From contig JBAZUR010000001.1 in NCBI GenBank assembly GCA_041661305.1, positions 387,684 to 451,683 of the forward strand: 64,000 nucleotides of DNA, in the 5' to 3' direction. The notes beneath the pieces are model-generated. The model had not been told where the DNA came from. It did not search any database and worked only from the letters and a program-made list of their open reading frames with translations. This stretch comes from Minisyncoccota bacterium. GTDB taxonomy: Bacteria > Patescibacteriota > Minisyncoccia > Phycocordibacterales > VMEP01. Position numbers and translations under genes: made by a program. Below are positions 18,701 through 47,286 of the stretch, piece by piece (within the stretch, counting starts at the first letter, position 1; each line of letters opens with the position of its first letter).

Positions 18701-19088
18701 TAACTATCGGGTATGGATTGGCGTTTTTTATTTCACCAGGAAACCCGATTGTCGCGCCGGGAACAGTCTGGGTAAGTGTAGTCGGAAGATCAACCTGAAC
18801 AGACCCAAAATGGTAATAATCAAAACAATCAACTGCCCCCTCGGGGGAAGTCCCAGAGGTATCAATACCAGAAGGATTACTCAAAAGAATAAAAGAGGTC
18901 ATCTTTTCTTTTTCTTCATTTGTCCAAGTCTTTTGGTCTTTCTTTAAAATAGCCTGTATCTCAGCTGGAGCGTCCTCTATATTAACTGTCGGTGTGCTAG
19001 GTGACGAAGGAGTTGTCACTTGAGCTTGCGACAATAGTGCTGATGTAAAAAGTAACAAAAATAAAACAAAACCGAAAAGTTTTTTCAT
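15723..19088 (-). CDS. Large secreted/surface protein (1121 aa): signal peptide, approximately 450-aa beta-rich domain, hydrophobic hairpin (two adjacent TM segments), then a Cys/Gly/Ser/Trp-rich region with PKD/Ig-like repeats
   Basis: N-terminal MKKLFGFVLFLLLFTSALLSQAQ. The hydrophobic hairpin is TGAIILGGLIILSIIYVLWAVLKGRKKLPISLTLILIFLGSSFIAPTTVEA. Repeated DIDGDNVRYGFDWNFD and DADIDGSIVAYEWRLGNC are PKD-like, and there are more than 40 Cys in the C-terminal half. Confidence 0.7.
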   Translation of the reverse strand: MKKLFGFVLFLLLFTSALLSQAQVTTPSSPSTPTVNIEDAPAEIQAILKKDQKTWTNEEKEKMTSFILLSNPSGIDTSGTSPEGAVDCFDYYHFGSVQVDLPTTLTQTVPGATIGFPGEIKNANPYPIVNGQVYVKIFRQQAGENFDQENGFDLVDQFSLDETFNIPANGSKKTSFLWKVPDNTPAGDYIASFFFQTAKRYNLLGLSFTDDVVGNQVYFSVVSDRKISVVTFDKSTVTLNKQPHRFAAFPLHFSKDEPVSVVVKLVNPKNESVTVPVVWKLYNWDGLREENLKDTKTESIKLKPEEVKEISYSALPTGAIVSYLVVETNDGPSKSILNIRFVRDGIEETRINFPSIMSYPLEKNKENTLFSCVHAVSDGVVKDNTLTLTLNDEKGRLIHSYEYAGNITSAMMGVKDLFTPKKNYTTFSLTATLKHKGEVVEEVKEVYDCRDINPDICPKKTNTGAIILGGLIILSIIYVLWAVLKGRKKLPISLTLILIFLGSSFIAPTTVEAKSVGTSFGLPILGFSEGSANPTGYGVAGITATVLYNATVTLFGSEVLDGSSIPTGATVRVTWNPSSGASSWVGTGGEYDSPYGRWDTSAKSCTTYNECTNINYVSGGWYYIIYQGDMATIPPSFSVSGSGLSCGATLGGVRTSGPYNSFFCSQYPGDPMWCATVVSYSPFYSDCIVTASSGQSISMNIAYPATNGSLRAGQFISYDGRQTGQYGRSGGLSYSVPAMSLSYSFTAAPPSNLPSTPTLVYQDPSLVNTPVSFTATATDIDGDNVRYGFDWNFDTVIDEWAPAIGYVPSGTPQTISRTWNTTGTKVFYVRTQDSNNNQSANVFKTVSIVTTIVNGSCGPADGTTRLTTAPTSGLCNTGTPGFVWNFTDRYQWDCRGINGANPTCRAYKNKTPTATMISPATNITINSSQSQQFSGAATDADIDGSIVAYEWRLGNCTSGTLISSLTSFARSFVPGTYWIFFRAQDDSGAWSSTWPSFCQGRQLVVTTPDPIPGVCGSANGAPTQKKPTSGLCNTVGLPGPVVLPEDINILPESDPALSWTWTCAGEYSGASASCSSVGTVCDSDGVCRQLGTSCGDDRCQASKGENPSTCRADCRVNFFEF

Positions 19089-19160: not shown

Positions 19161-22100
19161 CTATGGTTCAACACCATATACCCAATTGAGAACGCCGTAT
19201 CTTTGATGTGGTGGGGTTGTTGTGACTGTTCCAGTAAAAAAGTTATTAAAAGATATTCTCTCTGCGCTGTTAACCAACCCTCCAGATCTAAGCGGACTTT
19301 CGTAAATAACAGCAAAATAATTTGCGCCCGAAACAAAATTACTTGGATTTATATTAAACAACTGTCCATATTCCGCACTCGTCCCCATATCTAATCCGTA
19401 GATACTAGTTGAACTACCGACTACCCCCTTATACAAACCAGCTACTTTCTGTCCAGTCAAAGAATCCGTCAAAAAACGACAATTATAATAAGACGAGCCC
19501 GAACGGGTCGGAACGTAATACCCTCCCTCCATAAAACTTGCTGTTTGTGGATCACAATAGAAACCAACTTTCCCCATACTGATACTGTTTCGTGTCTTTG
19601 GGGTTCCATTAATAATATTTCCGTCTTTGTCATGTCCCGCCAAATAAGAACCGTCGTTGGTCCCCCAATTATTTTTATCACTTCCAATCGTATCGACATG
19701 TTTTCTTTCCATTGTTTTGTAGTCCGGAGAACCACTACCACCGCACCAACCACTACAATCCGCCAAAACCGGAGTCTGGTCGATAGTTGTAGTTGAAGCA
19801 CCTCCGCCAAAATTTAAACTCAAAACTTCCCCGTCATTTGCAAGTCCAGACCCTCCACCAGTTCCACTGAATGGAACAGGCAAATCAATCGAAACGTCAG
19901 AAAAAATATCCCCTGCTTCACCGCGCCCTATCAAAAAATATCCGTACGCTGGTATGGTTCCTGAAAGCGAGATGTGTGGAGTGCCGTCTTCGGCGGATAT
20001 ACTAAAACCAGATAGGTTAAGTGGTAAATTGGTTCTATTTTTTAACTCAATCCATTCGTCGTATGACGACGCATCAGTTCCCGCCCAAGCAACTTCATTA
20101 ATTACAATTGGCATATAGCTTGCGGTGAAATATGCAGTATTGCCAACAGTGGACAAATCGCGGTTTCCAAAAATACTCACCGCCACAACTTTTATATCGT
20201 ACGGCCCTGCTGTTGTGGGGATAACAACAGAAGTATCGCTTGTCGTGGTAATAGTTGAAAATCCAGTCAAACTTGTGCCTTTGATTATTTCAAAATAACT
20301 ATAGTTAGGCGTACTTGCCGACCAAGAAATAGTAGCTTGTCCTTCCGGAAGAAAGCACGACTGCGGTGGTGCCTGTAAAGAGTTGGCACATTCTAGAACG
20401 CTCACGTTTGTTGCTCTTGGTTGTATTGTGTAAACATTAAAAATAGCGTCTCGTGAAACAGAGGTGTTGCCATCTTGATCGACAGCAAAAAACTTTATCG
20501 TTGTTGTTCCCTCCGGCAAATCAGAAAATGAAAGCGACCATGTGCTAGTAGAAGAAGCGACTACTGTCGCGTTGTTAAAATCATTTCCTATTGTAAATCC
20601 AGGCGTTGAAGTTCCAGAAAAAGTAACGGAATTTGTGCGTAGTTGTAATGGAAAATTATGTGAGGTAATTGATGGCGGAGAGATATTTGGGACATCAACC
20701 GATAAGGTAATTTCTTGTTGAGCGATGTTTTCATTATCAGGAATTGTTGCAAGAAATCGTATTGTGCTTATGCCATTTGGAAAATCAGAAATGGTAATAG
20801 ACCAGTCCCCTGTTTCTAATGAAGTTGTGGTGGATTGCGAATATGAATTTGAAATTGTTGCACCAGGAGTGGATGTGCCTGAAAATATTATAGTTGTCTC
20901 AGTAAACGCGTTAGAAAAATCGCTTGGTGATATAACGGAAATAAAAACCGAACTAGCTTGCGAAACTTCTGTTATCGATGTTTCTTCCTCCGTCGCCTGT
21001 TCTGTAGCCGGCGTTGTAATTACTGGGGCTGACACTGGCGCTCCACCGCCAAAACCAGGAGAAAAACCACTTCCAAAATTTATTTTTGGCATAGGAATAT
21101 TATCTGTGACTGGTGTTGGGGGTGTTTCTGTTGAAGTTGTTTGTTTTTGCACTTGAGGTTCTGTCTCTGTCTCGCTTGGTTGAGCAATAATCTGCTCAGC
21201 ATCTTGAGTGACTGGTGTGTTATTTTCTGAAGCTAAAACCGAAGTGGTGTCTGATTTTTGTTCCTCCGTTGGTATTTGTTGAACTTGCGCATCATTTGCT
21301 GTGGCGAGAACAACGGCCGCACCAGAATTTGAATCGCCAAAGGCTAGGTCTGTGGCGGCGCGTATTCCAGAACCAATCGTTGACGCAATATTTTTAATAG
21401 CACCCACCGTAGCGACACCGGCAGAGTAAACACCTCCCGCCGTTTCAACTACAACAGTTTTTGTTGTGTCCGCGACAGGATCAATAACAGCCAGCACTGC
21501 TCCTTGTACCTTGTGTGTGGTTGTAAGTTTAGGAGAAGCAATGCATGGCAAATTCTCGTTTTGATTTTTATTTGTCTTTAAATTATCGAGTGAGGATTTA
21601 ATATCAGACACAATTTGGGCGCTACGATACTTCATATAAACATCTGAAAAACTATGTCCGAGCTTATCATCACCATCTTTCAAAATGATTTTGGTATTCG
21701 CCGACATAATTTTCTTAAGCGGAACACTTCCAACAAAATCAGAAATAACTTTATCTGTACTTGAAGTAAGCCATTTTCCACCACCGGCAACACGACTAGC
21801 TGGAGTGGCAACAGAATAAACAGCAATAGAGCCTGCGGAAGCATTCCCGGGTTGTCCAAAAACTTTGTCATGGAAACTGTTGGCATAAAAATTGCCCTGT
21901 GAATGGGCAACGAGAAGCACTTTTTTGGTTTTAACTTTTTCACTCGCAGACTTCAACATCTCAACAAGATCATAATCTTGCACTGTTTCATCTTCAAAAA
22001 TCTTTTGGTATGTGGCGACAAAGGCGTCACCTAAACCACCAACATGAGATGGGTTGAGAAGATATTCATACTTAATTTTTTGGTTATTCCAAACAAAACC

Positions 22101-22274
22101 AACTTTTTTCATGAGTGCCTCCATATTCGCCACGGCGCCACTTTCGTCAGTAAAAACACCGTTTATAGTAGCCACCGTATAACCATCTGGGGAACAGTTT
22201 TTTACGCTAGAAGTAGCGAAAGAGACTGGTGGAAAAAACAAGCCAATGATTAAAAAATTAAATAAAAATTTCAT
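19161..22274 (-). CDS. Large secreted protein (1037 aa): N-terminal alpha/beta-hydrolase (lipase/esterase-like, GxSxG = AHSQG), Ser/Thr-rich linker, Ig-like repeats, lamin-tail domain (LTD), C-terminal domain
   Basis: Signal peptide MKFLFNFLIIGLFFPPVSFA. Lipase elbow KKVLLVAHSQGNFYAN. LTD signature IVINEVAWAGT....DEWIELKN. Duplicated FSGTSTPG...TISN segments. Confidence 0.7.
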   Translation of the reverse strand: MKFLFNFLIIGLFFPPVSFATSSVKNCSPDGYTVATINGVFTDESGAVANMEALMKKVGFVWNNQKIKYEYLLNPSHVGGLGDAFVATYQKIFEDETVQDYDLVEMLKSASEKVKTKKVLLVAHSQGNFYANSFHDKVFGQPGNASAGSIAVYSVATPASRVAGGGKWLTSSTDKVISDFVGSVPLKKIMSANTKIILKDGDDKLGHSFSDVYMKYRSAQIVSDIKSSLDNLKTNKNQNENLPCIASPKLTTTHKVQGAVLAVIDPVADTTKTVVVETAGGVYSAGVATVGAIKNIASTIGSGIRAATDLAFGDSNSGAAVVLATANDAQVQQIPTEEQKSDTTSVLASENNTPVTQDAEQIIAQPSETETEPQVQKQTTSTETPPTPVTDNIPMPKINFGSGFSPGFGGGAPVSAPVITTPATEQATEEETSITEVSQASSVFISVISPSDFSNAFTETTIIFSGTSTPGATISNSYSQSTTTSLETGDWSITISDFPNGISTIRFLATIPDNENIAQQEITLSVDVPNISPPSITSHNFPLQLRTNSVTFSGTSTPGFTIGNDFNNATVVASSTSTWSLSFSDLPEGTTTIKFFAVDQDGNTSVSRDAIFNVYTIQPRATNVSVLECANSLQAPPQSCFLPEGQATISWSASTPNYSYFEIIKGTSLTGFSTITTTSDTSVVIPTTAGPYDIKVVAVSIFGNRDLSTVGNTAYFTASYMPIVINEVAWAGTDASSYDEWIELKNRTNLPLNLSGFSISAEDGTPHISLSGTIPAYGYFLIGRGEAGDIFSDVSIDLPVPFSGTGGGSGLANDGEVLSLNFGGGASTTTIDQTPVLADCSGWCGGSGSPDYKTMERKHVDTIGSDKNNWGTNDGSYLAGHDKDGNIINGTPKTRNSISMGKVGFYCDPQTASFMEGGYYVPTRSGSSYYNCRFLTDSLTGQKVAGLYKGVVGSSTSIYGLDMGTSAEYGQLFNINPSNFVSGANYFAVIYESPLRSGGLVNSAERISFNNFFTGTVTTTPPHQRYGVLNWVYGVEP

Positions 22275-37151: not shown

Positions 37152-37724
37152 TTACTCACCAAAAAGATTTTGCTCAACCCCCTCACAAATAGAGTGCCCC
37201 AACAACATGTGACATTCTTGTATACGAGGAGTGTCGCTTGAAGGAATTTTTATTATGTAATCACATAATAAATCCATTTTTGAAGGCTTCTCCCCCGTAA
37301 AACCGACTGTTATCATCCCGATATTTTTGGCCTCCTCTAGTGCTAAAATTACATTTTTTGAACCACCAGAAGTTGAGAGTCCAACTAAAACATCCCCTTT
37401 TTTGCCAAGGGCTTTTATTAACCTTGAATAGACAACATCGTAGGAATAGTCGTTAGCAACAGCGGTAAGATAAGAAGTATTAACATGAAGTGCCTCAGAA
37501 GAGAGTGGTTCTCTGTCAAAATAATACCGTCCGGAAAGTTCTGCGGCTAGGTGCTGAGCATCAGCAGCACTTCCTCCGTTACCACACCATAAGGTTTTAT
37601 TACCAGCTTTATAGCTTTCTGTTATAGTTTTGGTTATATCTTCCGCAATACTAATAATCCTAGCATCATCTAATAGTCTCTTCTTTGTATCAATAGATGT
37701 TTGAATTCTGTCTTTGATAAACAT
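37152..37724 (-). CDS. gmhA: D-sedoheptulose-7-phosphate isomerase (SIS domain)
   Basis: TLWCGNGGSAADAQHLAAEL...GLSTSGGSKN. Confidence 0.8.
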   Translation of the reverse strand: MFIKDRIQTSIDTKKRLLDDARIISIAEDITKTITESYKAGNKTLWCGNGGSAADAQHLAAELSGRYYFDREPLSSEALHVNTSYLTAVANDYSYDVVYSRLIKALGKKGDVLVGLSTSGGSKNVILALEEAKNIGMITVGFTGEKPSKMDLLCDYIIKIPSSDTPRIQECHMLLGHSICEGVEQNLFGE

Positions 37725-37826
37725 GTACTTACTATCTCATAAATAACCTATATTTGTAAATTTTAAAACATTTTGATTTCTTGACTAAAAAGTAGCCAGA
37801 CTTTATCATGACCAAGAATAAAATCT

Positions 37827-38699
37827 ATGGAAAAAAATATAAATCTATCCTATCTTGTAGTAACCAGAAATAAGCTTCCATACCTAAAGGTTACTTTAGA
37901 AAAATTAATTTCTCAAAAAAAAGAAGATGAGGACATTTTAGTAGCAGATGGGCAAAGTTCTGATGGTACAAAAGAATATCTTGCTGAACTAAAAAGTCTC
38001 GGGCGTATTGATTTTTATTTATCAGAACCAGACGTAAGTGTCGCTCACGCCATAAACAAGTTAATCCTAATATCAAAGGGTAGTCTTCTTCGGTTCATGG
38101 CAGATGATGATGCGTCACATTATCAATCAATAAACGCCTGTAAAGAGTTTATGATGAAACACCCTGAAATAGATCTAGTAAATACCGAGGGTGGAGTTCT
38201 TGGTTCCAATGGGAAACTTAAAGCTCTTACCTATGTAAATACTTTTAAAGAATACAAAAAAAATCACATACCATTTTCATTCTGTGAACTCGGCATGATC
38301 TTACGTCGCACCTCTATTCCACTAATAGGTCTACGAGACCCCGTATTCAAACGAGCAGATATGGAAATGTCTTTACGGATTACGTCCGGAATGGCAAAAA
38401 TTGCTTGGTATACTGGGTACTCTTACGTAAACATAGTAACCCCACAAAGTGCAAGCAAAACCCTAGCAAAAGAGATGGCGTCTGAAACCGACAGATTAAA
38501 CAAGTTCTATTTGGGAAAAAACCCAGACAATTTCTTTGTAAATAAAATTAAAATCATAAAAAATAAAGTAGGGATGATTTTATTTAAAAAAAATAATAGA
38601 ATGGTAGAGCTTGGTTCAGACTGGTTTTCGTTTCTATCTTCGTCTGAAGAGTGGCTGGAGATAAAGAATAAAGAAATAACACCTGAATTTATTTATTAA
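37827..38699 (+). CDS. Glycosyltransferase family 2-like
   Basis: LSYLVVTRNKLPYL...ILVADGQSSDGTKEYL (GT2 N-terminal pattern). Confidence 0.55.
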   Translation: MEKNINLSYLVVTRNKLPYLKVTLEKLISQKKEDEDILVADGQSSDGTKEYLAELKSLGRIDFYLSEPDVSVAHAINKLILISKGSLLRFMADDDASHYQSINACKEFMMKHPEIDLVNTEGGVLGSNGKLKALTYVNTFKEYKKNHIPFSFCELGMILRRTSIPLIGLRDPVFKRADMEMSLRITSGMAKIAWYTGYSYVNIVTPQSASKTLAKEMASETDRLNKFYLGKNPDNFFVNKIKIIKNKVGMILFKKNNRMVELGSDWFSFLSSSEEWLEIKNKEITPEFIY

Positions 38700-38716
38700 A
38701 ATTAGAAACACTGATT

Positions 38717-39475
38717 ATGTTATACAAAATTATTACACTGGCTAGACACAACACTCTGATCAATAGAGCCTTAAGAAAGCTAAAAAAAATAACTGGAATA
38801 AAACAAACTACTAATGCCGACTTGGTTAGGAAATATGTTAAAGGAAAATCTTTTGCTGACGTTGGCGCACTATGGGGTGTAAATGGATTAAATTCATTCA
38901 TTGCAGAAGAAAGTGGGGCAGGAAAAGTAACGGCCGTTGATATATATCCCGAGAGTCCGAAATTTATAGAAGAGAAAAATAAAAGAAATTCCAACATTGG
39001 ATTCGTTCAAGGAGATATCCATCAGTCTTCAACAACCGATGCAATTGGAGTATGTGATGTTGTGCTATGTTCTGGAGTTCTATATCACACACCAGACCCT
39101 ATTCACCTCCTCACGAGACTTCGTGCTATTTGCGGAGAAACTCTCATCTTAAATACTGCGTCAATTCCAGAAGTTCCGGGAATGAAGAACGTAGCAGTAC
39201 TATATCCATTTTTAGATGAAAACCAGAGAAAAATCTGGAACAGAAAAATGACCAGCCAAATTGGGATAACAACTCCATATGAACCAGAAGAGGGTTATGC
39301 AAACTGGTTCTGGGGAATGACCCCTAGTTCAATAGAATCAATGCTCAAATGTGCTGGATTTGAGGTGATTAAAAAATTTATATCACCCTTCGATTCAATT
39401 TTTGTTTGTAAAACTGCTCCAGTAAAATTATCTGCTTCGTCTGGGGAATGGACTCTTCCAAAATCAAGAGCATAA
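38717..39475 (+). CDS. Class I SAM-dependent methyltransferase
   Basis: FADVGALWGVNG... Rossmann motif I, and the acidic motif-II residue VDIYPE. Confidence 0.65.
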   Translation: MLYKIITLARHNTLINRALRKLKKITGIKQTTNADLVRKYVKGKSFADVGALWGVNGLNSFIAEESGAGKVTAVDIYPESPKFIEEKNKRNSNIGFVQGDIHQSSTTDAIGVCDVVLCSGVLYHTPDPIHLLTRLRAICGETLILNTASIPEVPGMKNVAVLYPFLDENQRKIWNRKMTSQIGITTPYEPEEGYANWFWGMTPSSIESMLKCAGFEVIKKFISPFDSIFVCKTAPVKLSASSGEWTLPKSRA

Positions 39476-39527
39476 CCTGTTTCAATAGAAGGTTTATATT
39501 CTAAAAAACTTGATTTTTCTATGTCTA

Positions 39528-40064
39528 TTACTTCTCGTTATAATAATCCCCGTATTCCACCAAGATAGTACTTTTACCGTCCTCTCTTTCTAGGGCCTTT
39601 TTGTACGCAGGAAAAATATCTTCTGGTTCTTCAAGACGAATTATCTCAACATTTGGACACATCAGACGAAACGCTTCGGTATAATCACCTATGTGCTGAA
39701 ACTGTGGGTGCATAGGGCGGACAGAACCAATGCCGGTACGTATAATAACTTTTGGCTGATAGCCTCCGTTTGACATAATAGACAATTTGTCTAAATGATT
39801 AACCAGCTGGTTTGTTCCTACAAGCAAAAAATTCCACCTTGGGAAAATACTTACTGGGACGTGCCCAGCTAACGCAAGCCCGATAGACATTCCCATCTGC
39901 ATTTCCTCAGCAACTGGAAGTTCTAAAAGTTTTTCTTTTGGAACATTTTTAAGTGTTGTGGTCATTGCAGTTCCTGGACACGCCACTGCCTGCCCAATAA
40001 AAAAAGACCTTTCATCTTGTGCAATCATTTCCATCGCGCGACTAAGTTCTTCAAAATATTTCAT
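39528..40064 (-). CDS. TPP-dependent enzyme beta-like subunit (transketolase pyrimidine-binding domain only; lacks the C-terminal domain)
   Basis: 178 aa. SFFIGQAVACPGT...EEMQMGMSIGLALAG is the Transket_pyr pattern. Confidence 0.6.
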   Translation of the reverse strand: MKYFEELSRAMEMIAQDERSFFIGQAVACPGTAMTTTLKNVPKEKLLELPVAEEMQMGMSIGLALAGHVPVSIFPRWNFLLVGTNQLVNHLDKLSIMSNGGYQPKVIIRTGIGSVRPMHPQFQHIGDYTEAFRLMCPNVEIIRLEEPEDIFPAYKKALEREDGKSTILVEYGDYYNEK

Positions 40065-40067
40065 AAG

Positions 40068-40706
40068 TTAAAATTGAACACGCTCCCCTGCCCCAGCGTG
40101 AGGATATTTAGTTTGGTATTTATAATAAACCACATTAGGATTTTTAGAATCTTCGTATGTAAGTTTATCTTGCTTCCATGTGCTAAGTGTCTCTGTACAC
40201 ACAGATTTTCCATTGTCTTCAATAATAAAACGTATTGGCAAATCATGGTTTGTCGCGTATTTAATGCACTCATGTGCTATGCCTGTCTCTGATGTCATGT
40301 CTCCCATAAAACAATGAACTTTATTTTTTCCTCCACTTCTTTTAATCCCCATTGCAACCCCAACTGCAATAGGAAGAATCCCACCAACGATTGCAGAAGA
40401 AACTATTCTCTGTTCTGGGAAACATAGTGATATTGATCTATTTGCGAGAATTTCTTCGCGAAGCCTATCTTCCGGCACCCCCTTTAAAAGACACTGATAA
40501 TGACTTCGCCAAGAACACATCACCCAATCTTCCTCTTTAACATCACGGAATACTTCTATTATTTCCTTTTCATTTCCATAATAAAGATGTACAGGGGAAG
40601 GAATTTTTGCAGAATTAAATAAATCCGCAATTTCTGTTTCAAAATTAATTAAATCTTCTGGGGTTAATTCTTTCCCTTTCTGAAAAGGTGTCTGGTTTGT
40701 ATCCAT
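40068..40706 (-). CDS. TPP-dependent enzyme alpha-like subunit (E1 alpha / transketolase N-terminal TPP-binding section)
   Basis: HCFMGDMTSETGIAHECIKYATNHDLPIRFIIEDN (GDG-x-N TPP motif). Confidence 0.6.
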   Translation of the reverse strand: MDTNQTPFQKGKELTPEDLINFETEIADLFNSAKIPSPVHLYYGNEKEIIEVFRDVKEEDWVMCSWRSHYQCLLKGVPEDRLREEILANRSISLCFPEQRIVSSAIVGGILPIAVGVAMGIKRSGGKNKVHCFMGDMTSETGIAHECIKYATNHDLPIRFIIEDNGKSVCTETLSTWKQDKLTYEDSKNPNVVYYKYQTKYPHAGAGERVQF

Positions 40707-40770
40707 AATTTACGATTATATCATAACGTATATATTTAAAAACAAATGTTCTTTCTTTGGTATTTAAGCA

Positions 40771-40812
40771 ATAAAAAAAACCGCACATGACGAGATGCAA
40801 CATGTGCGGCTT
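40771..40812 (-). terminator. Strong intrinsic terminator for the radical-SAM gene (ccgcacatg/catgtgcgg stem followed by T8 on the minus strand)
   Basis: Sequence aaaaaaaaccgcacatgacgagatgcaacatgtgcgg is read directly. Confidence 0.75.
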
Positions 40813-40828
40813 AAGTTCCTTCTGAAAA

Positions 40829-42370
40829 CTACCCCCCTGGAGTGAGGTCCCCAAGAATCTTACGCTTCAAGTGAAAACCAAGTAGTCCTTCGATGGTTTT
40901 GCGCTGTTCCAAACCAAACCTTTTTTCCACCAAAGAGAGGAAAGCAGGGTTGGAATGATAGATGTCCCATGCTTCATCGCGGAACCTTAAAACTTCCGCG
41001 GATGTGCAATGTTTTGTGGGCATCGGTTGGCAATGATAAGAAAGGAATCCAAAGCCGGCATAAGAATCCGGCAAAACAATCCCCTTCTTCTTTGCCTCGA
41101 CATAGAGAGAACTCCCCGGCAATGCCATGCACGGATACATATTCGCTTCTTCCGTGTTAAGCTCCATCGCAAGCTCGAGTGTCTCCTGCATCGTTCCGAC
41201 TGAATCTTCCGGCAGGCCAAAGATATAGTTCGCGATAACGTTAATATCATGATCGCGGACCGTCTTCACAACTTCACGGATATTCACATCCTTGAAAGTC
41301 CCTTTCGAAACTTCCTTGCGGACATTTTGGTTCCCCGACTCAACCCCGAGAGCAAGCCAATCAATGCCTGCCCTTTTGAAAAGGTCGAGATACCGCGACT
41401 GGACGCTGTCGACGCGAGCATATGCCCACATGCGAAGTCCCAGCTCTCTTTCAACAACAAAGTTGAGAAGCGGTTCGAAATATTTCCTTTGCAGGAAAAA
41501 CATCTCATCGGAAATCCTAACCGTCCTGACGCCCATCTTGGAAAGCTTTTCGAGCTCGCCTGCGATGAAACCCGGCGACCAAAAACGCATCCCGGGTGAA
41601 TCCGCCGCGGAAATATCGTCGCCGTTATTGTTACGGTTTACGATGTTGATCATGCAGAAATTACAGCGAAACTGACAGCCCAGTGAGGTATAGATAGCGG
41701 CGAACGGACTCCGGTTGTTTTGATTGAAGCCAGCGTGCCAAATGTGCGCACGATACATATCCAACGGCTTTTCACGATAAGGCAGAAGATCCCACGCGTA
41801 GCCTGGCAAGTCTTCGTCCATTCTTTCTTGCGGAACGACCTGTTCGGGTGGATTCAGGATGGAGGCTCCTCCTGTCTTGAATCCAATTCCCCTCACAGTA
41901 AAAAACGATGATTTTTCCAGGTCGGTCCGAAGAAGATTGTGAAGTGCGTAAACGCCTTCGTTCAAGAGAACGATGTCGACACAATCAAGTGCGAGAACTT
42001 CGCGTGGCAAAGCACTGACATGAGACCCAACAAAGCATGTTGGGTATTCCGGGAACTCGTGTTTCAAGGCTTCGCCCAAAAGCTCCGCTCCAGCCATACT
42101 GGCTGTACCAGAGTTGGGATTCTGCCCGTACATCACGAAACAAACCAGACGTGGTTTCATGTCGTCAATGCGTTTAACCGCTTCATCGACAGAGAGGTGC
42201 TCGGCGCCACAATCAAGAATCGCGACACCAAAACCTTTCGCCCGACAACTTTGGGCCAACAAAAGCGCCCAGGTTGGCGGTTCAATTGCTGTGTATTTTT
42301 CACTCAACCCCTGATAAGCCTGAAAGGACGAATCGGGATTAACAAACAAAACGTCTAATTTTTTATCCAC
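40829..42370 (-). CDS. B12-binding (class B) radical SAM enzyme
   Basis: N-terminal B12-binding domain (VLFVNPD..., GFGVAILD). The radical SAM motif is YTSLGCQFRCNFC (CxxxCxxC). Length is 513 aa. Local GC is about 50% versus about 35% in flanking DNA. Confidence 0.8.
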   Translation of the reverse strand: MDKKLDVLFVNPDSSFQAYQGLSEKYTAIEPPTWALLLAQSCRAKGFGVAILDCGAEHLSVDEAVKRIDDMKPRLVCFVMYGQNPNSGTASMAGAELLGEALKHEFPEYPTCFVGSHVSALPREVLALDCVDIVLLNEGVYALHNLLRTDLEKSSFFTVRGIGFKTGGASILNPPEQVVPQERMDEDLPGYAWDLLPYREKPLDMYRAHIWHAGFNQNNRSPFAAIYTSLGCQFRCNFCMINIVNRNNNGDDISAADSPGMRFWSPGFIAGELEKLSKMGVRTVRISDEMFFLQRKYFEPLLNFVVERELGLRMWAYARVDSVQSRYLDLFKRAGIDWLALGVESGNQNVRKEVSKGTFKDVNIREVVKTVRDHDINVIANYIFGLPEDSVGTMQETLELAMELNTEEANMYPCMALPGSSLYVEAKKKGIVLPDSYAGFGFLSYHCQPMPTKHCTSAEVLRFRDEAWDIYHSNPAFLSLVEKRFGLEQRKTIEGLLGFHLKRKILGDLTPGG

Positions 42371-42456
42371 GATACACCTCTCTATAAGTGATTGATTTGA
42401 GTTGGGACTGTCCCATATTTAAGGAACTTTCTCTTTTAATTTTATATCACAAATTA

Positions 42457-42487
42457 CAAAAAAAAGCAATACCTGATTGCTTTTTTA
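42457..42487. terminator. Bidirectional intrinsic terminator (aagcaat/attgctt stem, acctg loop, A8 and T6 flanks) between the radical-SAM gene and the SDR gene
   Basis: Sequence aaaaaaaagcaatacctgattgctttttt is read directly. Confidence 0.7.
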
Positions 42488-42503
42488 TACACGTAAACAA
42501 TAA

Positions 42504-43532
42504 TTATTTAGTGGCGGTTATTTCTTTTGCAACCTCTTTACGCCAATGATTGATGAGGTGTTCCATGCTTTCTTTAAAGGTGTAGTTTGGCTCCCATCCT
42601 GTCACTTCACAAAATTTACTAGTATCAGGTATTTGAAGTGTTACATCTGATGGACGAAGTAGTGCTGGGTCTACCCTAGTTGGAATTGGTTTTTTTGCAA
42701 GAGATATTAGTGTATCTAAAAAATCACGTACGGACATTGTTGTGGTGCCTCCAATGTTGTAAGCCTCCCCTGGTTCACAGTACATAAGCGCGTCCCAATA
42801 TGCCCTCATGGCATCTCTTACGTCAATAATCGTTCTTATTGAATCAAGATTTCCGTGTACCAACTCCTTCTGTAAGCCCATTTCTATTCTAACTACTTGT
42901 CTCGCAAAAGAAGTTGCAAAAAGATCAGTTCTACGAGGGTTCAAATAAGTAAACATCCTCGTCCTTATTATCGGCATTTTATATGACTTAAAATAGCTAT
43001 AACCAAGCATATCTTGTGCCACCTTTGAAACAGCATAAGGGCTCGTTGGGCACATTGGGGTATTTTCGTTTATTGGAACATATTTTGGATCTACAACGCC
43101 ATAAACCTCCGAACTACTACAAAGTTGGATAAGCGGGTTAATTTTTGCCGCGCGAATAGCCTCAAACAGGTTTGCTGTACCCATAATATTATTATTCAAA
43201 ACAGAGAGTGGTGTTTGAAAAGACGCACGCACATTAGCATGGGCTGCCAAATGAAAAATTGCATCTGGTTTGCTTTTTTCTAGTGCCGATAAAACAGAAC
43301 TAAAATCCATAAGATCACATTCATGTAAGGTAACCTTATCTCTAATCTCGTGAAGATTGTCTGTAACCGTAGTGCTGTGCCAGCGACCCATCCCATGAAC
43401 TTCAATTTTAGGATGATTTTTAACTATATATTCGGCCAAATAACTACCCCCTGACCCCGAAATACCCGTAATCAAAACTCTTTTAATTTTTTTTAATCTT
43501 GCCTCAGATTTTTTATTTTTTTGTTGTTTCAT
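42504..43532 (-). CDS. NAD-dependent sugar nucleotide epimerase/dehydratase (extended SDR; Gmd/Rmd-like)
   Basis: VLITGISGSGGSYLAEYI, and 342 aa length. Confidence 0.7.
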   Translation of the reverse strand: MKQQKNKKSEARLKKIKRVLITGISGSGGSYLAEYIVKNHPKIEVHGMGRWHSTTVTDNLHEIRDKVTLHECDLMDFSSVLSALEKSKPDAIFHLAAHANVRASFQTPLSVLNNNIMGTANLFEAIRAAKINPLIQLCSSSEVYGVVDPKYVPINENTPMCPTSPYAVSKVAQDMLGYSYFKSYKMPIIRTRMFTYLNPRRTDLFATSFARQVVRIEMGLQKELVHGNLDSIRTIIDVRDAMRAYWDALMYCEPGEAYNIGGTTTMSVRDFLDTLISLAKKPIPTRVDPALLRPSDVTLQIPDTSKFCEVTGWEPNYTFKESMEHLINHWRKEVAKEITATK

Positions 43533-43725
43533 AATTTTTAATTATTTAATCAAGAGAATAAAATATCATGTAATGTTATGTAAAAAAAATACCTCTGTCA
43601 ATTTTACCGTCAAAAACCTTAAAGTCTTAAATTAAGTTCACGAAAATACTCGCCTTCTCATTAAGTGCCTAATTATGATATTCTATGGAATCTAACACTA
43701 AATAAGTATAAACTACGAAAATAAA

Positions 43726-44913
43726 ATGAAAAAACAGGCAAAAACTAGTAACTGGCCACTAATGTATAACAACATTTCAAAAGACGACGTTAATAAGGTT
43801 ATTTCGTTTCTATCACAAAAAAATATCCCCATCCTAACGCAATCAAAAAAAGTCAGGGAATTTGAAGAAAGTTGGTCAAAATGGCTTGGAGTTAAATATA
43901 GCGTTTTTGTAAACTCTGGAAGTTCAGCTAACCAAATTACAATGCTTGTCTTAAAAGAGCTATACGGAACAGGAGAGATAATTGTACCGCCACTAACGTG
44001 GGTATCTGACATTGCGTCAGTTCTACAAAATGGTTTTACTCCTGTGTTTTGTGATATCAACCTAACGACACTAGCGATAGATATTGAGGAAATAAAGAAA
44101 AAAATAACCCCAAAAACTCGCGCCATCTTTTTAACTCATATTCTTGGGTATAATGGACTTACCCAAGAACTATTAGATTTATGCAAAAAAAAGAAAATAA
44201 TACTAATTGAAGACACCTGTGAATCACACGGGGCAACCTTTAAAAATAAAAAGTGTGGATCCTTTGGTTTAGTATCTAATTTTTCTTTTTACTACGCACA
44301 TCACCTATCTTCAGTTGAAGGTGGTATGGTTTGCACAAATGACGAAAAAATATATCAATACGCAAGGATGTTTAGGTCACATGGAATGGTTCGTGAAAGC
44401 ACAAATGAAAAAATAAAAAAAGATTACGCAAAAAAATACAAAGATTTAAATACAGATTTTATATTCTCATCTCCTGCCTACAATATGAGAAATGGCGAAA
44501 TTAACGCCGTTATGGCGTTAAACCAATTGAAAAGATTGGACAAAAACAACAAAACAAGAAAAGACAACTTAAAAATTTTCCTAAAAAACCTCGACTCCAA
44601 AAAATACTTCACAAACTTTAACCAAACCGGTAATTCTAATTACGCCTTTACCCTACTTTTAAATAATCCTGACTTTAAAAAGAGAGATCTAATAGAAAAA
44701 ACATTAAAAGAAAACGGTGTAGAATTTAGAAGAGGAATGTCTGGCGGTGGAAACCAGCTAATGCAACCTTACTTAAGAAAATTGTTTGGTAATGAATATT
44801 TAAATTACCCAAACACAAACCACGTTCACCATTTTGGGTGGTATATTGGAAACTACCCAGACCTAAATAAAGATCTAATTCCTAAGCTGTGTAAAATGTT
44901 AAACTCTATATGA
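43726..44913 (+). CDS. DegT/DnrJ/EryC1/StrS-family PLP-dependent sugar aminotransferase/3-dehydratase (RfbH/DdhC-like)
   Basis: ...FEESWSKWLGVKYSVFVNSGSSANQITML... is the family pattern, and a PLP Lys region is present. Confidence 0.65.
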   Translation: MKKQAKTSNWPLMYNNISKDDVNKVISFLSQKNIPILTQSKKVREFEESWSKWLGVKYSVFVNSGSSANQITMLVLKELYGTGEIIVPPLTWVSDIASVLQNGFTPVFCDINLTTLAIDIEEIKKKITPKTRAIFLTHILGYNGLTQELLDLCKKKKIILIEDTCESHGATFKNKKCGSFGLVSNFSFYYAHHLSSVEGGMVCTNDEKIYQYARMFRSHGMVRESTNEKIKKDYAKKYKDLNTDFIFSSPAYNMRNGEINAVMALNQLKRLDKNNKTRKDNLKIFLKNLDSKKYFTNFNQTGNSNYAFTLLLNNPDFKKRDLIEKTLKENGVEFRRGMSGGGNQLMQPYLRKLFGNEYLNYPNTNHVHHFGWYIGNYPDLNKDLIPKLCKMLNSI

Positions 44914-45866
44914 TAATAGTAAAATCACCGCTTAGAATATCTTTTTTTGGTGGATCTACAGATTATGAATCTTTTTACAAAGAACATGGTTCTTTTATTA
45001 TCGGCACCACGATTGATAAATATATATGGCTCTCCGCCAGATATAGACCTAAAATTCTACCAAAAGAACACTCGATAGCTTACTCTAAACTTGAGGTGGT
45101 TTCGTCTTTTGAAGAGGTGCAAAATCCCCTTATTAGAGAAGTTCTAAAATACCACGATATACGCAATCATATTGATTTCACCTCCTCGGCAGACGTTCCC
45201 TCTAGGACGGGACTAGGTGGTTCATCCTCTTTTTGTGCTGGGATGATACACCTTATGAAAAATCTAAAGGGGGAGTTTTCAGAAAAAAAAGATATCGCAA
45301 AAACAGCTATTCATATCGAGAGAAACATCTTAAAAGAAAGTGGTGGTATTCAAGATCAAATATGGGCAGCATATGGAGGATTTAACACCATAAAAATAGA
45401 TAGGAACGGGGACTTTGAAGTTACTCCTATTCCTGTTTCAGATAAATTTAAACGAGAACTTGAGGAGTCTATTGTCCTAATTTACACAAACGACCAAAGA
45501 AACCAAAACGAAATAGCTCAGTCTCATGAAAATAAAGACAAAAAAAAGATACTGGACTTATCTCTAAAAGCTTATGATTATTTTATAAAAGAAGACATAA
45601 GGGGTATTGGGGAATTGTTACTAGAGTCGTGGAATGAAAAACGTAAAATATCATCACTTATCTCTACTGAAAAAATAGATAAAATGGCGGAAAAAGTTAT
45701 GAGTATGGGCGCCTACGGAATAAAGCTTCTCGGTAGTGGTGGCTGTGGTTTCCTGATGGTGATATGCAATAGTGATGTTAAAAAGAAAATAGTAGAAGAA
45801 TTTAAAGAAAATATCCTCGAATTTAAATTTGAAGACAAGGGTACTTCGATTGTGTATCCAAACTAA
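44910..45866 (+). CDS. GHMP-family sugar kinase (D-glycero-D-manno-heptose 7-phosphate kinase HddA-like)
   Basis: SPLRISFFGGSTDY...GTGLGGSSSFCAGMI (GHMP motif). Confidence 0.65.
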   Translation: MIIVKSPLRISFFGGSTDYESFYKEHGSFIIGTTIDKYIWLSARYRPKILPKEHSIAYSKLEVVSSFEEVQNPLIREVLKYHDIRNHIDFTSSADVPSRTGLGGSSSFCAGMIHLMKNLKGEFSEKKDIAKTAIHIERNILKESGGIQDQIWAAYGGFNTIKIDRNGDFEVTPIPVSDKFKRELEESIVLIYTNDQRNQNEIAQSHENKDKKKILDLSLKAYDYFIKEDIRGIGELLLESWNEKRKISSLISTEKIDKMAEKVMSMGAYGIKLLGSGGCGFLMVICNSDVKKKIVEEFKENILEFKFEDKGTSIVYPN

Positions 45867-45908
45867 TTTAATTGAAAGGTTTTTGTTTTGAATATATAAT
45901 AAAAAAAT

Positions 45909-46847
45909 ATGAAAAAAATACTTGTAACTGGTGGGGCGGGATATATAGGAGCAGTTTTAGTTCCAGATTTACTTAAGGCTGGACACGAGGTCACCGTAAT
46001 CGATAATTTTCTTTTTAAACAGTCGCCACTTCTTGATGTCTGTAATTACAAAACCTTAAAAATTATCCGAGGAGACGCAAGAAACGAGTCATTGATTAAG
46101 GAGCATATTGCCGACAAGGATTATATAATACCGCTCGCCTGTTTAGTTGGTGCCCCCCTATGCGACCAGGACCCACTAAGCGCTACAAGTATAAACCGCG
46201 ACGCAATTCTAATGCTCCTTAAACTTCGCACCCCAGAACAAAAAATAATTTTCCCGAACACAAATAGTGGTTATGGGCGAATGGAGGAAGGGGTTGCGTA
46301 CTGCGACGAAAACAGTCCACTTGAACCAGTCTCACTTTACGGAAGATTAAAAGTTGAAACAGAAAAGGCCCTTCTTGAAGCGGGCAATGCTATTACATTT
46401 AGACTTGCAACAGTTTGTGGGGTTAGTCCAAGAATGCGCATGGACTTACTTGTAAATGATTTCGTATATCGAGCCATAACAGACCGCGCTGTTGTTTTGT
46501 TTGAGCCACACTTTAAAAGAAACTACATACACGTAAGAGATGTCTCACGTGCCTTCCTCCACGCAATTGAGAACTTTGAGAGCATGAAGAATCAAACATA
46601 TAATGTTGGTCTATCAGATGCGAACCTAAGCAAATCTGAATTGTGTGAAAAAATCAAAGAACAATTACCTAAATTTGTATTTATTGAGTCCCCTATTGGT
46701 GAAGATCCAGACAAAAGAAATTACGTAATTAGTAATGAAAAAATAGAAAAGACTGGATTCATGCCACAAGTATCGATAGAAAATGCTATAACTGAACTAA
46801 TAAAAGGTTACCAAGTGGTTAGAAAAAACCAGTTTTCTAACGTTTAA
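45909..46847 (+). CDS. NAD-dependent epimerase/dehydratase (SDR)
   Basis: ILVTGGAGYIGAVLVPDLL. Confidence 0.75.
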   Translation: MKKILVTGGAGYIGAVLVPDLLKAGHEVTVIDNFLFKQSPLLDVCNYKTLKIIRGDARNESLIKEHIADKDYIIPLACLVGAPLCDQDPLSATSINRDAILMLLKLRTPEQKIIFPNTNSGYGRMEEGVAYCDENSPLEPVSLYGRLKVETEKALLEAGNAITFRLATVCGVSPRMRMDLLVNDFVYRAITDRAVVLFEPHFKRNYIHVRDVSRAFLHAIENFESMKNQTYNVGLSDANLSKSELCEKIKEQLPKFVFIESPIGEDPDKRNYVISNEKIEKTGFMPQVSIENAITELIKGYQVVRKNQFSNV

Positions 46848-46857
46848 AACAATAAAC

Positions 46858-47286
46858 ATGATAATAGGAATAGTATCTGGCTATTTTAACCCATTACACT
46901 ATGGGCATGTTGAATATATAAACGGAGCAAAAAAACACTCAGATAAACTTATTTGTATAATAAACAGCGACAAACAAGTAGCGCTAAAAGGTTCTTTTCC
47001 ATTCATGGACGAAGATCATCGAGCTAAAATAATCAGCAACTTAAAATCTGTTGATGAAATATTCATATCAATAGATAAAGACAAAACACAATGTGAATCA
47101 CTAAAATACCTTAGAAATAAGTATCCAAAAGAAAATTTAATATTTTTCAATAGTGGTGACAGAAAAGAAGGCAACTTAGAAACTAGCGAGGCCACAGTTT
47201 GTAAAAACTTAAATATCAAATTTCAGATTTTAGATTTACCAAAAATATATTCTTCGAGTGATCTTTTAAAAAAAAGTGGCATCTAA
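46858..47286 (+). CDS. HxGH nucleotidyltransferase (cytidylyl/adenylyltransferase, RfaE domain-II-like)
   Basis: GIVSGYFNPLHYGHVEYINGAKK...LICIINSD. Confidence 0.7.
   Translation: MIIGIVSGYFNPLHYGHVEYINGAKKHSDKLICIINSDKQVALKGSFPFMDEDHRAKIISNLKSVDEIFISIDKDKTQCESLKYLRNKYPKENLIFFNSGDRKEGNLETSEATVCKNLNIKFQILDLPKIYSSSDLLKKSGI

Follow-up and report, generated by a model that had tools for sequence, protein, structure and literature searches.

A GC-rich radical SAM gene in a Minisyncoccota glycan locus is probably a resident module gene overwritten by a divergent allele

Within the 64,000-nucleotide stretch of DNA analysed here (the window), a GC-rich radical SAM gene stands out from its glycan locus. 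It is probably a resident gene of a nucleotide-sugar tailoring module whose allele was overwritten by homologous recombination, a reading that includes the biochemistry proposed below. The radical SAM enzyme would be one fixed component of this module, the other parts being a sugar kinase, a small nucleotidyltransferase, a 4,6-dehydratase, a ColD-type 3-dehydrase, a split E1-type thiamine enzyme and a short-chain dehydrogenase/reductase (SDR). At positions 42206-40742, homologous recombination would have replaced the resident sequence by an allele that is deeply divergent yet belongs to the same clade, one dominated by Patescibacteria. One crossover would lie near the 5′ end of the radical SAM gene, where its sequence is conserved, and the other in the following gene's promoter region.

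The earlier note on this DNA had placed a class-B radical SAM gene of 513 aa in a glycan locus, and domain searches bear this out. Besides carrying the cluster motif CQFRCNFC, the protein scores 67.2 bits with the Pfam Radical_SAM domain PF04055 (gathering cutoff 29.5) and 48 bits with the B12-binding domain PF02310 (cutoff 32.1). It thus combines a CxxxCxxC motif with a radical SAM domain above the gathering cutoff, as expected of the superfamily, and has an N-terminal Rossmann-type domain of the cobalamin-binding type fused to the radical SAM core, as expected of class B. The three motif cysteines are invariant across 49 aligned sequences, and every family-invariant residue is retained in the window protein, which departs from the consensus at 9 of 245 columns conserved to at least 90% (family median 3, maximum 12). 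An AF2 model of the protein has a pLDDT of 84.7 and a pTM of 0.88. The features of the locus are collected in Table 1.

Table 1 Features of the radical SAM gene, its module partners and the exchanged segment (positions in the window)
Feature	Position	Strand	Remarks
Class-B-type radical SAM ORF	40829..42370	-	513 aa, GTG start, intact
N-terminal Rossmann-type "B12-binding" domain, aa 25-146	41933..42298	-	Pfam PF02310
Radical SAM core, aa 227-401	41168..41692	-	Pfam PF04055
CxxxCxxC cluster motif CQFRCNFC	41654-41677	-	C232/C236/C239
Exchanged (xenologous) segment	40742..42206	-	from ~codon 55 until shortly after the gene's terminator; maximum-likelihood two-breakpoint fit
Strong intrinsic terminator of radical SAM gene	40771..40812	-	hairpin + U8; inside exchanged segment
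Weak AT-rich terminator-like hairpin	42457..42487	-	belongs to upstream 4,6-dehydratase gene; outside exchanged segment
Putative extended -10 element TGATATAAA	42441..42449	-	71 nt upstream of GTG start; repeat family D6
Similar extended -10-like element TGATATAAT	40715-40723		upstream of E1alpha gene; putative function
NDP-sugar 4,6-dehydratase, GDP-mannose-dehydratase-like SDR	42504..43532	-	PF16363, 8.9e-72
Short E1alpha-like ThDP-binding subunit	40068..40706	-	212 aa; PF00676, PF02775 matches
Short E1beta-like pyrimidine-binding subunit	39528..40064	-	178 aa; PF02779 match
ColD-type PMP-dependent 3-dehydrase	43726..44913	+	PDB 2gms/3gr9 ColD, 5e-54
GHMP sugar kinase, HddA-like	44910..45866	+	module partner
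SDR reductase/epimerase	45909..46847	+	module partner
Small cytidylyltransferase-like nucleotidyltransferase	46858..47286	+	142 aa; PF01467, 7e-13
SIS-domain sugar-phosphate isomerase, GmhA-like	37152..37724	-	PF13580 match

The aberrant composition claimed for the gene held up on recalculation: its GC content is 0.494 and its GC3 0.537, whereas the remaining 50 window ORFs have a GC3 of 0.306 ± 0.033 (z = 7). The anomaly sits at synonymous sites, where composition deviates from that of the host as in a genomic islet, and it is limited to the radical SAM gene, since the GC3 of the immediately flanking genes is 0.25-0.36. The reported burst of shadow ORFs was likewise recovered, with 11 ORFs of at least 60 aa having their midpoints within the gene versus 3.76 ± 1.61 per equal-sized sliding window, the maximum of shadow-ORF density in the whole window.

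GC-richness is not, however, peculiar to the exchange event, because the copies at the related loci L001 and L062 are GC-rich too (GC3 0.48-0.49 vs 0.27-0.30 in their flanks). Across the clade, the GC3 of the gene is 0.57-0.69 in GC-richer hosts and 0.48-0.54 in three low-GC hosts; low-GC genomes from other phyla display no such anomaly. Parsimony polarisation of synonymous changes detected no net GC-to-AT flux in the L001 and L062 copies (15:14, 24:18 and 22:16), a result that we take as suggestive only, given that the AT-rich flanks used as control were strongly biased (98:194). The two copies differ at 47% of four-fold sites. High GC3 that persists without net GC-to-AT flux is unlike the prediction of a simple un-ameliorated transfer. 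The GC-richness is probably older than the allele swap. It is common to all alleles of the low-GC lineage and suggests that the gene arose in, or kept exchanging with, GC-richer clade members.

Two strong terminators had been proposed to bracket the gene. The downstream one is indeed strong (12-bp stem, centroid -17.7 kcal/mol, z -2.9), and its hairpin differs in each of the alleles in the window, L001 and L062. The upstream hairpin, by contrast, is weak (10-11 bp AT-rich stem, centroid -7.9 kcal/mol, z -2.0) and lies 17 nt past the stop codon of the 4,6-dehydratase gene, which identifies it as that gene's own terminator; it is kept in L001 and not in L062. Only the downstream hairpin falls inside the exchanged segment. 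A consensus promoter and terminator scan detected neither hairpin and no significant promoter excess; the downstream hairpin was presumably missed because its 11-nt loop exceeds the 3-8 nt limit of the scan. The extended -10 motif occurs five times against 2.2 expected, an enrichment that is not significant and makes the motif weak evidence for a promoter assignment. Taken together with a GAGAGG ribosome-binding site and the gene's own terminator, the extended -10-like element suggests a monocistronic radical SAM unit, in agreement with the self-contained transcription unit put forward in the earlier note, as far as sequence patterns can tell.

The gene had further been taken for an inserted cassette that brings an extra step to the pathway, a view that the relatives contradict. 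Both L001 and L062 have a radical SAM homologue in the same slot, within the order 4,6-dehydratase, radical SAM, E1alpha, E1beta, and L068 has one in an equivalent slot. The gene is therefore present, rather than missing as an islet gene would be, at the orthologous position in these close relatives, where the earlier note had suggested looking for its absence.

Beyond the relatives, the module is kept across Proteobacteria, Verrucomicrobia, SAR11 and phages. Among 61 genome loci, a ColD-like gene is found in 49, a GHMP kinase gene in 48, an SDR gene in 46, E1alpha/beta genes in 22-23 (E1alpha in 22) and the SIS-domain isomerase gene in 20; among 80 viral loci, E1alpha is found in 45. The module takes a single-operon form in L064 and on the contig of P0027, the nearest outgroup, which was used for gene context, and the small nucleotidyltransferase gene occupies the matching position in L066 and L069. 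T4-like phages carry the module as GHMP kinase, split E1-type ThDP enzyme, ColD-type 3-dehydrase, SDR and radical SAM enzyme. No radical SAM homologue was found at E ≤ 1e-20 in deposited phage genomes, so the phage link comes from IMG/VR contigs only. Within the 3-dehydrase of the window, the HH of "yaHHlssveGG" aligns to "ysHHiatmEGG" (SHH) of ColD at the position of the aminotransferase Lys; the enzyme thus has the catalytic His in place of Lys that defines the ColD type, and we take the aligned ColD residue to be His188.

Set into these conserved surroundings, the allele itself is divergent. Flanking proteins are 87-98% identical to those of L001 and L062 (4,6-dehydratase 94-96% and E1beta 96.6% in both), whereas the radical SAM protein is only 74-75% identical. 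In the two-breakpoint fit, DNA identity to L001 is 0.663 within the exchanged segment and 0.854 outside (2dlnL 154); fitted against L062, the segment spans 42206..40671. The breakpoints are sharp, and the first ~165 nt of the ORF together with the upstream spacer remain 0.85-0.92 identical to the relatives. At four-fold sites, the window and L001 diverge by 0.64 in the radical SAM gene, compared with 0.39-0.41 in four flanking genes. Since synonymous sites are deeper too, mere fast protein evolution is excluded.

The radical SAM protein is moreover 72-76% identical to every clade member, regardless of partner-gene identity, be it 79% or 95%. Across the 21 locus pairs that exclude the window, radical SAM identity follows partner identity (-2.5 ± 2.6 points), while pairs that include it show deviations of -3.5 to -19.4. 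Closest homologues that were vertical orthologues at the same position would have spoken against transfer; instead, L001 ranks only tenth among homologues that are all ~75% identical. A neighbour-joining (NJ) tree placed the window allele within a clade of 93% support and as sister to L001 in 0 of 100 bootstraps; in this NJ-only analysis, branches close to the window allele receive weak support (28-37%). The gene's phylogeny is thus discordant with that of its flanks, as for islet genes. Among 5.8 billion proteins, no donor closer than 76% identity was found, so the source of the window allele is unsampled. Around the exchanged segment, flanking repeats amounted to short chance matches, Pfam detected no mobility domains (integrase, transposase) in neighbouring ORFs, and Rfam returned no match, tRNA included, in the whole window. 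Given this lack of mobile-element signatures, homologous replacement of the allele is the interpretation we favour.

How much of this could be accounted for otherwise? The insertion of a foreign self-contained cassette, which would provide a new tailoring step and a C-methylated or branched sugar not made by relatives, fits the GC3 outlier, the gene's own terminator and possible promoter, and closest homologues other than the positional counterparts. This reading is nevertheless very unlikely: the slot is already filled in L001, L062 and L068, the conserved start of the ORF and its spacer are common to relatives, ColD-like, GHMP, SDR and E1alpha/beta genes are conserved together with the gene from phylum to phylum and in phages, and insertion scars or repeats were not found. 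What survives of the horizontally acquired cassette proposed in the earlier note is a sequence history that differs from the flanks; the insertion does not. A chimeric contig carrying a GC-rich fragment of another organism might be suspected behind an abrupt compositional step in a metagenome-assembled genome, and yet the reading frame is unbroken across the 5′ breakpoint, which lies within the ORF, and the same architecture with a GC-rich radical SAM gene recurs in three more independent assemblies (L001, L062 and L068). With the architecture common to four independent assemblies, we rejected an assembly or binning artefact, which is hardly credible.

Without any transfer, the gene would be a fast-evolving vertical orthologue whose GC content is kept by synonymous-site selection or GC-biased gene conversion. 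GC-rich copies in all three low-GC relatives, the missing net flux in L001 and L062 despite their four-fold differences, and the agreement of radical SAM with partner identity once the window is set aside are all in keeping with this. Yet the sharp identity steps at 42206 and 40742, the excess synonymous divergence over flanks at ~0.40, the equidistance of the window allele from all clade members and the failure to recover a window-L001 sister pair argue against it, as does the slow evolution of the family elsewhere (62-66% identity between phyla). In-situ fast evolution was rejected on the deeper synonymous sites and sharp breakpoints, and we regard the absence of transfer as unlikely overall. 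Reversing the direction, the window allele could be ancestral and the L001/L062 lineage, and others, the recipients of a replacement. Four-fold divergence between the window and L062 is 0.11 in the ColD-like gene and 0.46-0.64 in neighbouring genes; the locus is thus mosaic overall and offers no single species tree to polarise events, which leaves room for a reversed direction, as do the aberrant compositions of the L001 and L062 copies themselves. This scenario is quite improbable, as seven other clade loci, from GC-rich and GC-poor hosts, diverge in step with their partners and only the window deviates, so that replacements would be required in every other lineage.

Regarding function, the [4Fe-4S] cluster would cleave SAM, and the resulting 5′-deoxyadenosyl radical would remove hydrogen at an unactivated carbon, either in an NDP-3,6-dideoxy-4-keto sugar or in its ThDP-derived C-branched product. 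Here, reaction type, substrate and cobalamin use are inferred. The outcome might be methyl transfer from methylcobalamin, which we put forward tentatively; an AprD4-type radical 1,2-diol dehydration finished by the co-conserved SDR is conceivable with less confidence, and rearrangement or epimerisation takes up the rest. No NCBIfam model reaches its curated cutoff for the protein, so no functional name is transferable. This applies to the methylase models, which lend no support to the GenK/Fom3-type analogy of the earlier note (score/cutoff: PhpK TIGR04479 82.3/600, KedN5 38/700, MgmA-type TIGR04014 62.4/360, Trp 2-C-MT 32/500), to the AprD4 model NF033070 (52.1 bits vs 500, over aa 223-435 only) and to HpnJ TIGR03471 (104.2 vs 577.6) and BchE TIGR02026 (80.2 vs 481.35). 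Full-length fold matches comprised AprD4, TsrM, MgmA, CysS, TokK and OxsB, with AprD4 the strongest. Rfam revealed no cobalamin riboswitch in the region or the whole window, and no B12 genes were present among the window ORFs scanned.

The family is very strongly conserved yet uncharacterised: its members are 50-76% identical over Patescibacteria, Proteobacteria, Verrucomicrobia, Cyanobacteria, SAR11 and phages, and a search for literature on the family or the gene combination returned no paper. A bolder reading, which we consider doubtful, is an undescribed cross-phylum surface-sugar pathway with the radical SAM protein as its signature enzyme, working cobalamin-free or on scavenged cobalamin, and with a gene-specific force holding GC3 ~0.2 above the genome in low-GC Patescibacteria. 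If true, this pathway would unite deoxygenation of the ColD type with branching by an E1-type ThDP enzyme and with radical SAM chemistry, in a module that T4-like phages carry complete, and the enzyme may run without cobalamin or on scavenged cobalamin in B12-auxotrophic CPR and SAR11 hosts. Working out what the enzyme catalyses would define a rare sugar that is new, displayed on cell surfaces by many environmental bacteria and by the phages infecting them. More generally, a GC-rich gene between terminators need not be a new cassette; here, it is probably a resident gene with an exchanged allele, and homologous exchange of glycan genes would thus be seen operating in CPR bacteria.

Comparison with known enzymes leaves the family apart from each. 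AprD4, the diol-dehydratase that acts with the reductase AprD3 in C3′ deoxygenation of apramycin, is not known to use cobalamin and has a free aminoglycoside pseudodisaccharide as substrate. It is only ~20% identical to the window protein, which, unlike AprD4, is found in the context of a nucleotide-sugar pathway already holding a ColD-type 3-dehydrase. From the cobalamin-dependent class-B methylases GenK, Fom3, TokK, CysS, TsrM and MgmA/QCMT, the family differs in that no methylase model scores near its cutoff and in its occurrence in hosts not known to synthesize B12, namely CPR bacteria and SAR11. HpnJ (7.5e-30, aa 8-441), thought to rearrange a sugar moiety, and BchE (1.5e-22) are the best full-length NCBIfam matches; in contrast to their settings, hopanoid and bacteriochlorophyll genes are absent nearby and the neighbours are nucleotide-sugar genes.

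As for pathways, E1alpha/beta-type branching enzymes of antibiotic sugars include AlmDI/DII and AviB1/B2, and we know of no described yersiniose-type pathway with a radical SAM enzyme. Yersiniose logic runs from a 4,6-dehydratase via a 3-dehydrase and ThDP carboligation to reduction, as in YerE/YerF and ErwE/ErwF (PMC9306805). In the window, all four enzyme types are encoded, with an SDR as the putative reductase beside the 4,6-dehydratase, the PMP-dependent 3-dehydrase and the ThDP enzyme. It departs from the yersiniose case in that its ThDP enzyme is split into two very short E1-type subunits (212 + 178 aa) instead of forming the single chain of YerE, and its dehydrase is of the ColD rather than the E1/RfbH type.

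The exchange itself has its closest parallel in O-antigen and capsule loci. Allele replacement is ordinary where well-studied bacteria encode their surface glycans, and E. coli rfb and pneumococcal cps are examples of serotype-type switching by homologous recombination. The window shares with them a divergent segment between conserved flanks, a mosaic glycan locus, non-host composition and the absence of mobility genes. It differs in that the host is a CPR bacterium and a single tailoring gene was swapped; as this gene is retained in all relatives, the sugar made need not change.

The radical SAM (rSAM) gene, which the earlier note had read as a foreign cassette bracketed by two strong terminators, encodes a 513-aa protein whose class-B type is borne out by B12-binding (aa 25-146) and Radical_SAM (aa 227-401) domains, both above the Pfam gathering cutoff, and by a CxxxCxxC cluster motif (C232-x3-C236-x2-C239). 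As had been claimed, the gene is GC-rich (GC 0.494 vs 0.373 for the whole window), with a GC3 of 0.537 vs 0.306 ± 0.033 in the 50 other window ORFs (z = 7), and the burst of shadow ORFs was recovered as the window maximum (11 vs 3.76 ± 1.61 per equal-sized window). Since the adjoining genes have a GC3 of 0.25-0.36, the anomaly is restricted to the rSAM ORF, at synonymous sites. As for the two hairpins, the downstream one is strong, whereas the upstream one is weak and belongs, as terminator, to the dehydratase gene before it. E1alpha (40706-40726) and rSAM (42435-42452) are each preceded by one of two similar motifs (TTNTGATATAAW..TAAA); the E1alpha copy stops 9 nt short of the ATG, suggesting an mRNA that may be leaderless or have a very short leader.

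Features of the rSAM gene and its surroundings (window positions)
Feature	Position	Strand	Remark
rSAM gene	40829..42370	(-)	513 aa, GTG start
Strong hairpin + U8, downstream of rSAM	40812-40771	(-)	
Weak AT-rich stem, upstream of rSAM	42487-42457	(-)	17 nt past dehydratase stop codon
4,6-dehydratase	42504-43532		
Short E1alpha-like ThDP subunit	40068-40706		
Short E1beta-like ThDP subunit	39528-40064		
Small cytidylyltransferase-like enzyme	46858-47286		

Over its first 24 kb, the window carries housekeeping genes (SecA, GatB, Obg, MurB, signal peptidase), followed from about 25 kb on by a glycan locus comprising a GDP-mannose dehydratase, a GDP-fucose-synthase-like SDR, Wzm/Wzt ABC transporter genes, AsnB and many glycosyltransferases and methyltransferases. 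Near the rSAM gene also lie an HddA-like GHMP kinase, an SDR, a SIS isomerase and a DegT-family neighbour, which among solved structures best matches ColD (5e-54) and aligns His-His to the position of ColD's catalytic His. Adjoining the glycan locus, 13238-15589 (-) encodes a Wzy_C (O-antigen ligase-like) domain fused to C-terminal TPR repeats, similar to a protein of another genome locus, L065. Two large ORFs at 15723-19088 and 19161-22274 (-), of 1121 and 1037 aa, with unusually high GC2 (0.47-0.48) and a weak Lamin Tail Domain as sole Pfam match, may encode surface proteins.

Homologues of the rSAM protein were found at 61 genome loci from many phyla (48-76% identity), besides one distant match at 24%. 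Within ±10 kb of these 61 genes, ColD-like proteins occur at 49 loci, GHMP kinases at 48, SDRs at 46 and E1alpha/beta at 22-23. On a GC-rich 4-Mb contig (L064), a single operon comprises NTP-transferase, GHMP, E1alpha, E1beta, DegT and rSAM, an arrangement shared by the nearest outgroup (P0027). In addition to the short E1alpha/beta pair, L064 encodes a further split pair of full size just 3' of its rSAM gene (L064:12737-14502), a transketolase made up of Transketolase_N and Transket_pyr/Transketolase_C subunits. The search for relatives lacking the gene, as expected of an inserted cassette, instead returned the window order (ColD-like, dehydratase - rSAM - E1alpha - E1beta, methyltransferase, GT2) in the syntenic loci L001 and L062, with rSAM between the same neighbours, and in a third, L068, with two added genes between rSAM and E1alpha. 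The rSAM gene is a resident component of this module, not an add-on.

What stands of the proposed horizontal acquisition is that the window allele has a history different from that of its flanks. Compared with L001/L062, flanking proteins are 87-98% identical and rSAM only 74-75%, with DNA identities of 0.83-0.90 and about 0.66, respectively. A two-breakpoint likelihood fit placed the divergent segment at 42206..40742 vs L001 (identity 0.663 inside, 0.854 outside; 2dlnL 154) and at 42206..40671 vs L062, and found no drop in identity spanning the rSAM gene between L001 and L062. Given the breakpoint at 42206, the upstream spacer and the ORF's initial approximately 165 nt are common to the window and its relatives; the rSAM terminator lies inside the segment and is different in each of the three. 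Faster protein evolution alone is ruled out as an explanation by the four-fold sites, where window and L001 differ at 0.64 in rSAM vs 0.39-0.41 in four flanking genes. On a long branch of its own, the window allele falls in an NJ tree within a Patescibacteria-dominated clade (93% support) whose labelled members are Patescibacteria, and in 0/100 bootstraps is it sister to the L001 allele, which clusters with homologue P0014 and the L062 copy (P0006). Across 21 pairs of clade loci without the window, rSAM identity follows partner-gene identity (-2.5 ± 2.6 points), whereas the window allele stays at 72-76% identity to every clade locus compared, with partner genes anywhere from 79% to 95%; as it alone leaves the trend, the window is the holder of the replaced copy. 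No repeats or mobility genes were found at the rSAM gene, which argues for homologous recombination. The protein keeps all invariant residues and deviates in 9/245 highly conserved columns, inside the family range. On these sequence comparisons, the window rSAM is quite likely a resident tailoring gene, embedded in its module, whose allele has been replaced, presumably by homologous recombination; such an exchange is evolutionarily ordinary for a glycan locus of mosaic make-up.

Across 37800-46900, the window, L001 and L062 form a recombination mosaic in which the closest pair changes gene by gene; four-fold divergence between window and L062 is 0.108 for the ColD-like gene, 0.46 for the adjoining dehydratase and 0.62-0.64 for E1beta and the methyltransferase. 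Their taxon labels clash: the exact window protein, recorded from a MAG contig of 476 kb, is filed under Candidatus Paceibacterota (CPR/Patescibacteria), L001 (CAZOFV010000003.1) under Candidatus Saccharibacteria. Since window and L001 flanking DNA is ~85% identical across 16 kb, one of the two labels is probably mistaken.

The rSAM family is not intrinsically high-GC: SAR11 copies have a GC3 of 0.17-0.20, and in 53 loci outside the clade rSAM minus flank GC3 is +0.016 ± 0.061. Clade hosts of GC3 0.48-0.61 carry copies of 0.57-0.69, with no outliers, while three low-GC syntenic genomes have rSAM at 0.48-0.54 and flanks at 0.27-0.31 (z about 7), and L065 has 0.645 vs 0.435 (z = 5). As GC-rich copies also occur in relatives, the excess is older than the window's swap; it fits an origin in GC-richer Patescibacteria. 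Between the L001 and L062 rSAM genes, 47% of four-fold sites differ, yet polarised GC-to-AT vs AT-to-GC changes are roughly balanced (15:14, 24:18, 22:16), with no net GC-to-AT flux detected, against simulated expectations of about 2.6:1 under amelioration and about 1.2:1 under stationarity; these are small counts from a parsimony biased in AT-rich controls. While module partners are fully AT-adapted, rSAM stays at GC3 ~0.5 (window 40829-42370; L001:10001-11536; L062:2791-4326), a persistence compatible both with repeated allele import and with a GC-favouring force specific to this gene. A reverse anomaly in Methylomicrobium / Methylotuvimicrobium (L009:10001-11524, L010:10001-11524; rSAM GC3 0.35-0.36, flanks 0.51-0.55) suggests that these methanotrophs received rSAM from a lower-GC donor.

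Relatives of rSAM also occur on 235 IMG/VR contigs (51-63% identity), and among the best 80 of these viral loci about half additionally carry E1alpha, E1beta, ColD-like, GHMP and SDR genes. One contig, L092 (IMGVR_UViG_3300043570_001741), is a genuine T4-like myovirus whose six-gene module (L092:1900-17500) is bordered at one end by genes for the major head, tail tube and helicase, and at the opposite end by genes for a gp55-like sigma and gp47/46-like proteins. The full module (rSAM, E1alpha, E1beta, GHMP kinase, ColD-like, SDR) is also carried by further T4-like myoviruses, L115 and about 40 more viral loci among L070-L149; among 50,697 deposited phage genomes, the rSAM gene was found in none (E <= 1e-20). 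Although too remote from the window allele to have supplied it, the phage copies offer a vehicle for cross-phylum spread of the module.

No NCBIfam model reaches its cutoff for the rSAM protein (top, HpnJ, 104 bits vs 577.6); its closest solved relative by sequence is MgmA (9ccb), a B12-dependent glutamine C-methylase, and its AlphaFold model is confident (pLDDT 84.7, pTM 0.88). The family is an uncharacterised, unusually conserved class-B-type radical SAM. CPR bacteria and SAR11 are not known to synthesise B12, so the enzyme may be cobalamin-independent. The enzyme would abstract hydrogen from an NDP-deoxysugar intermediate, and C-methylation or AprD4-like dehydration, with the co-conserved SDR, would be the leading outcomes. 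Acyl-branched 3,6-dideoxy sugars are made by 4,6-dehydratase, PMP 3-dehydrase, ThDP carboligation and reduction (PMC9306805), an enzyme logic that the window neighbours match by enzyme type; unlike those pathways, the window encodes a split ThDP enzyme of the E1 type and would add a radical SAM step.
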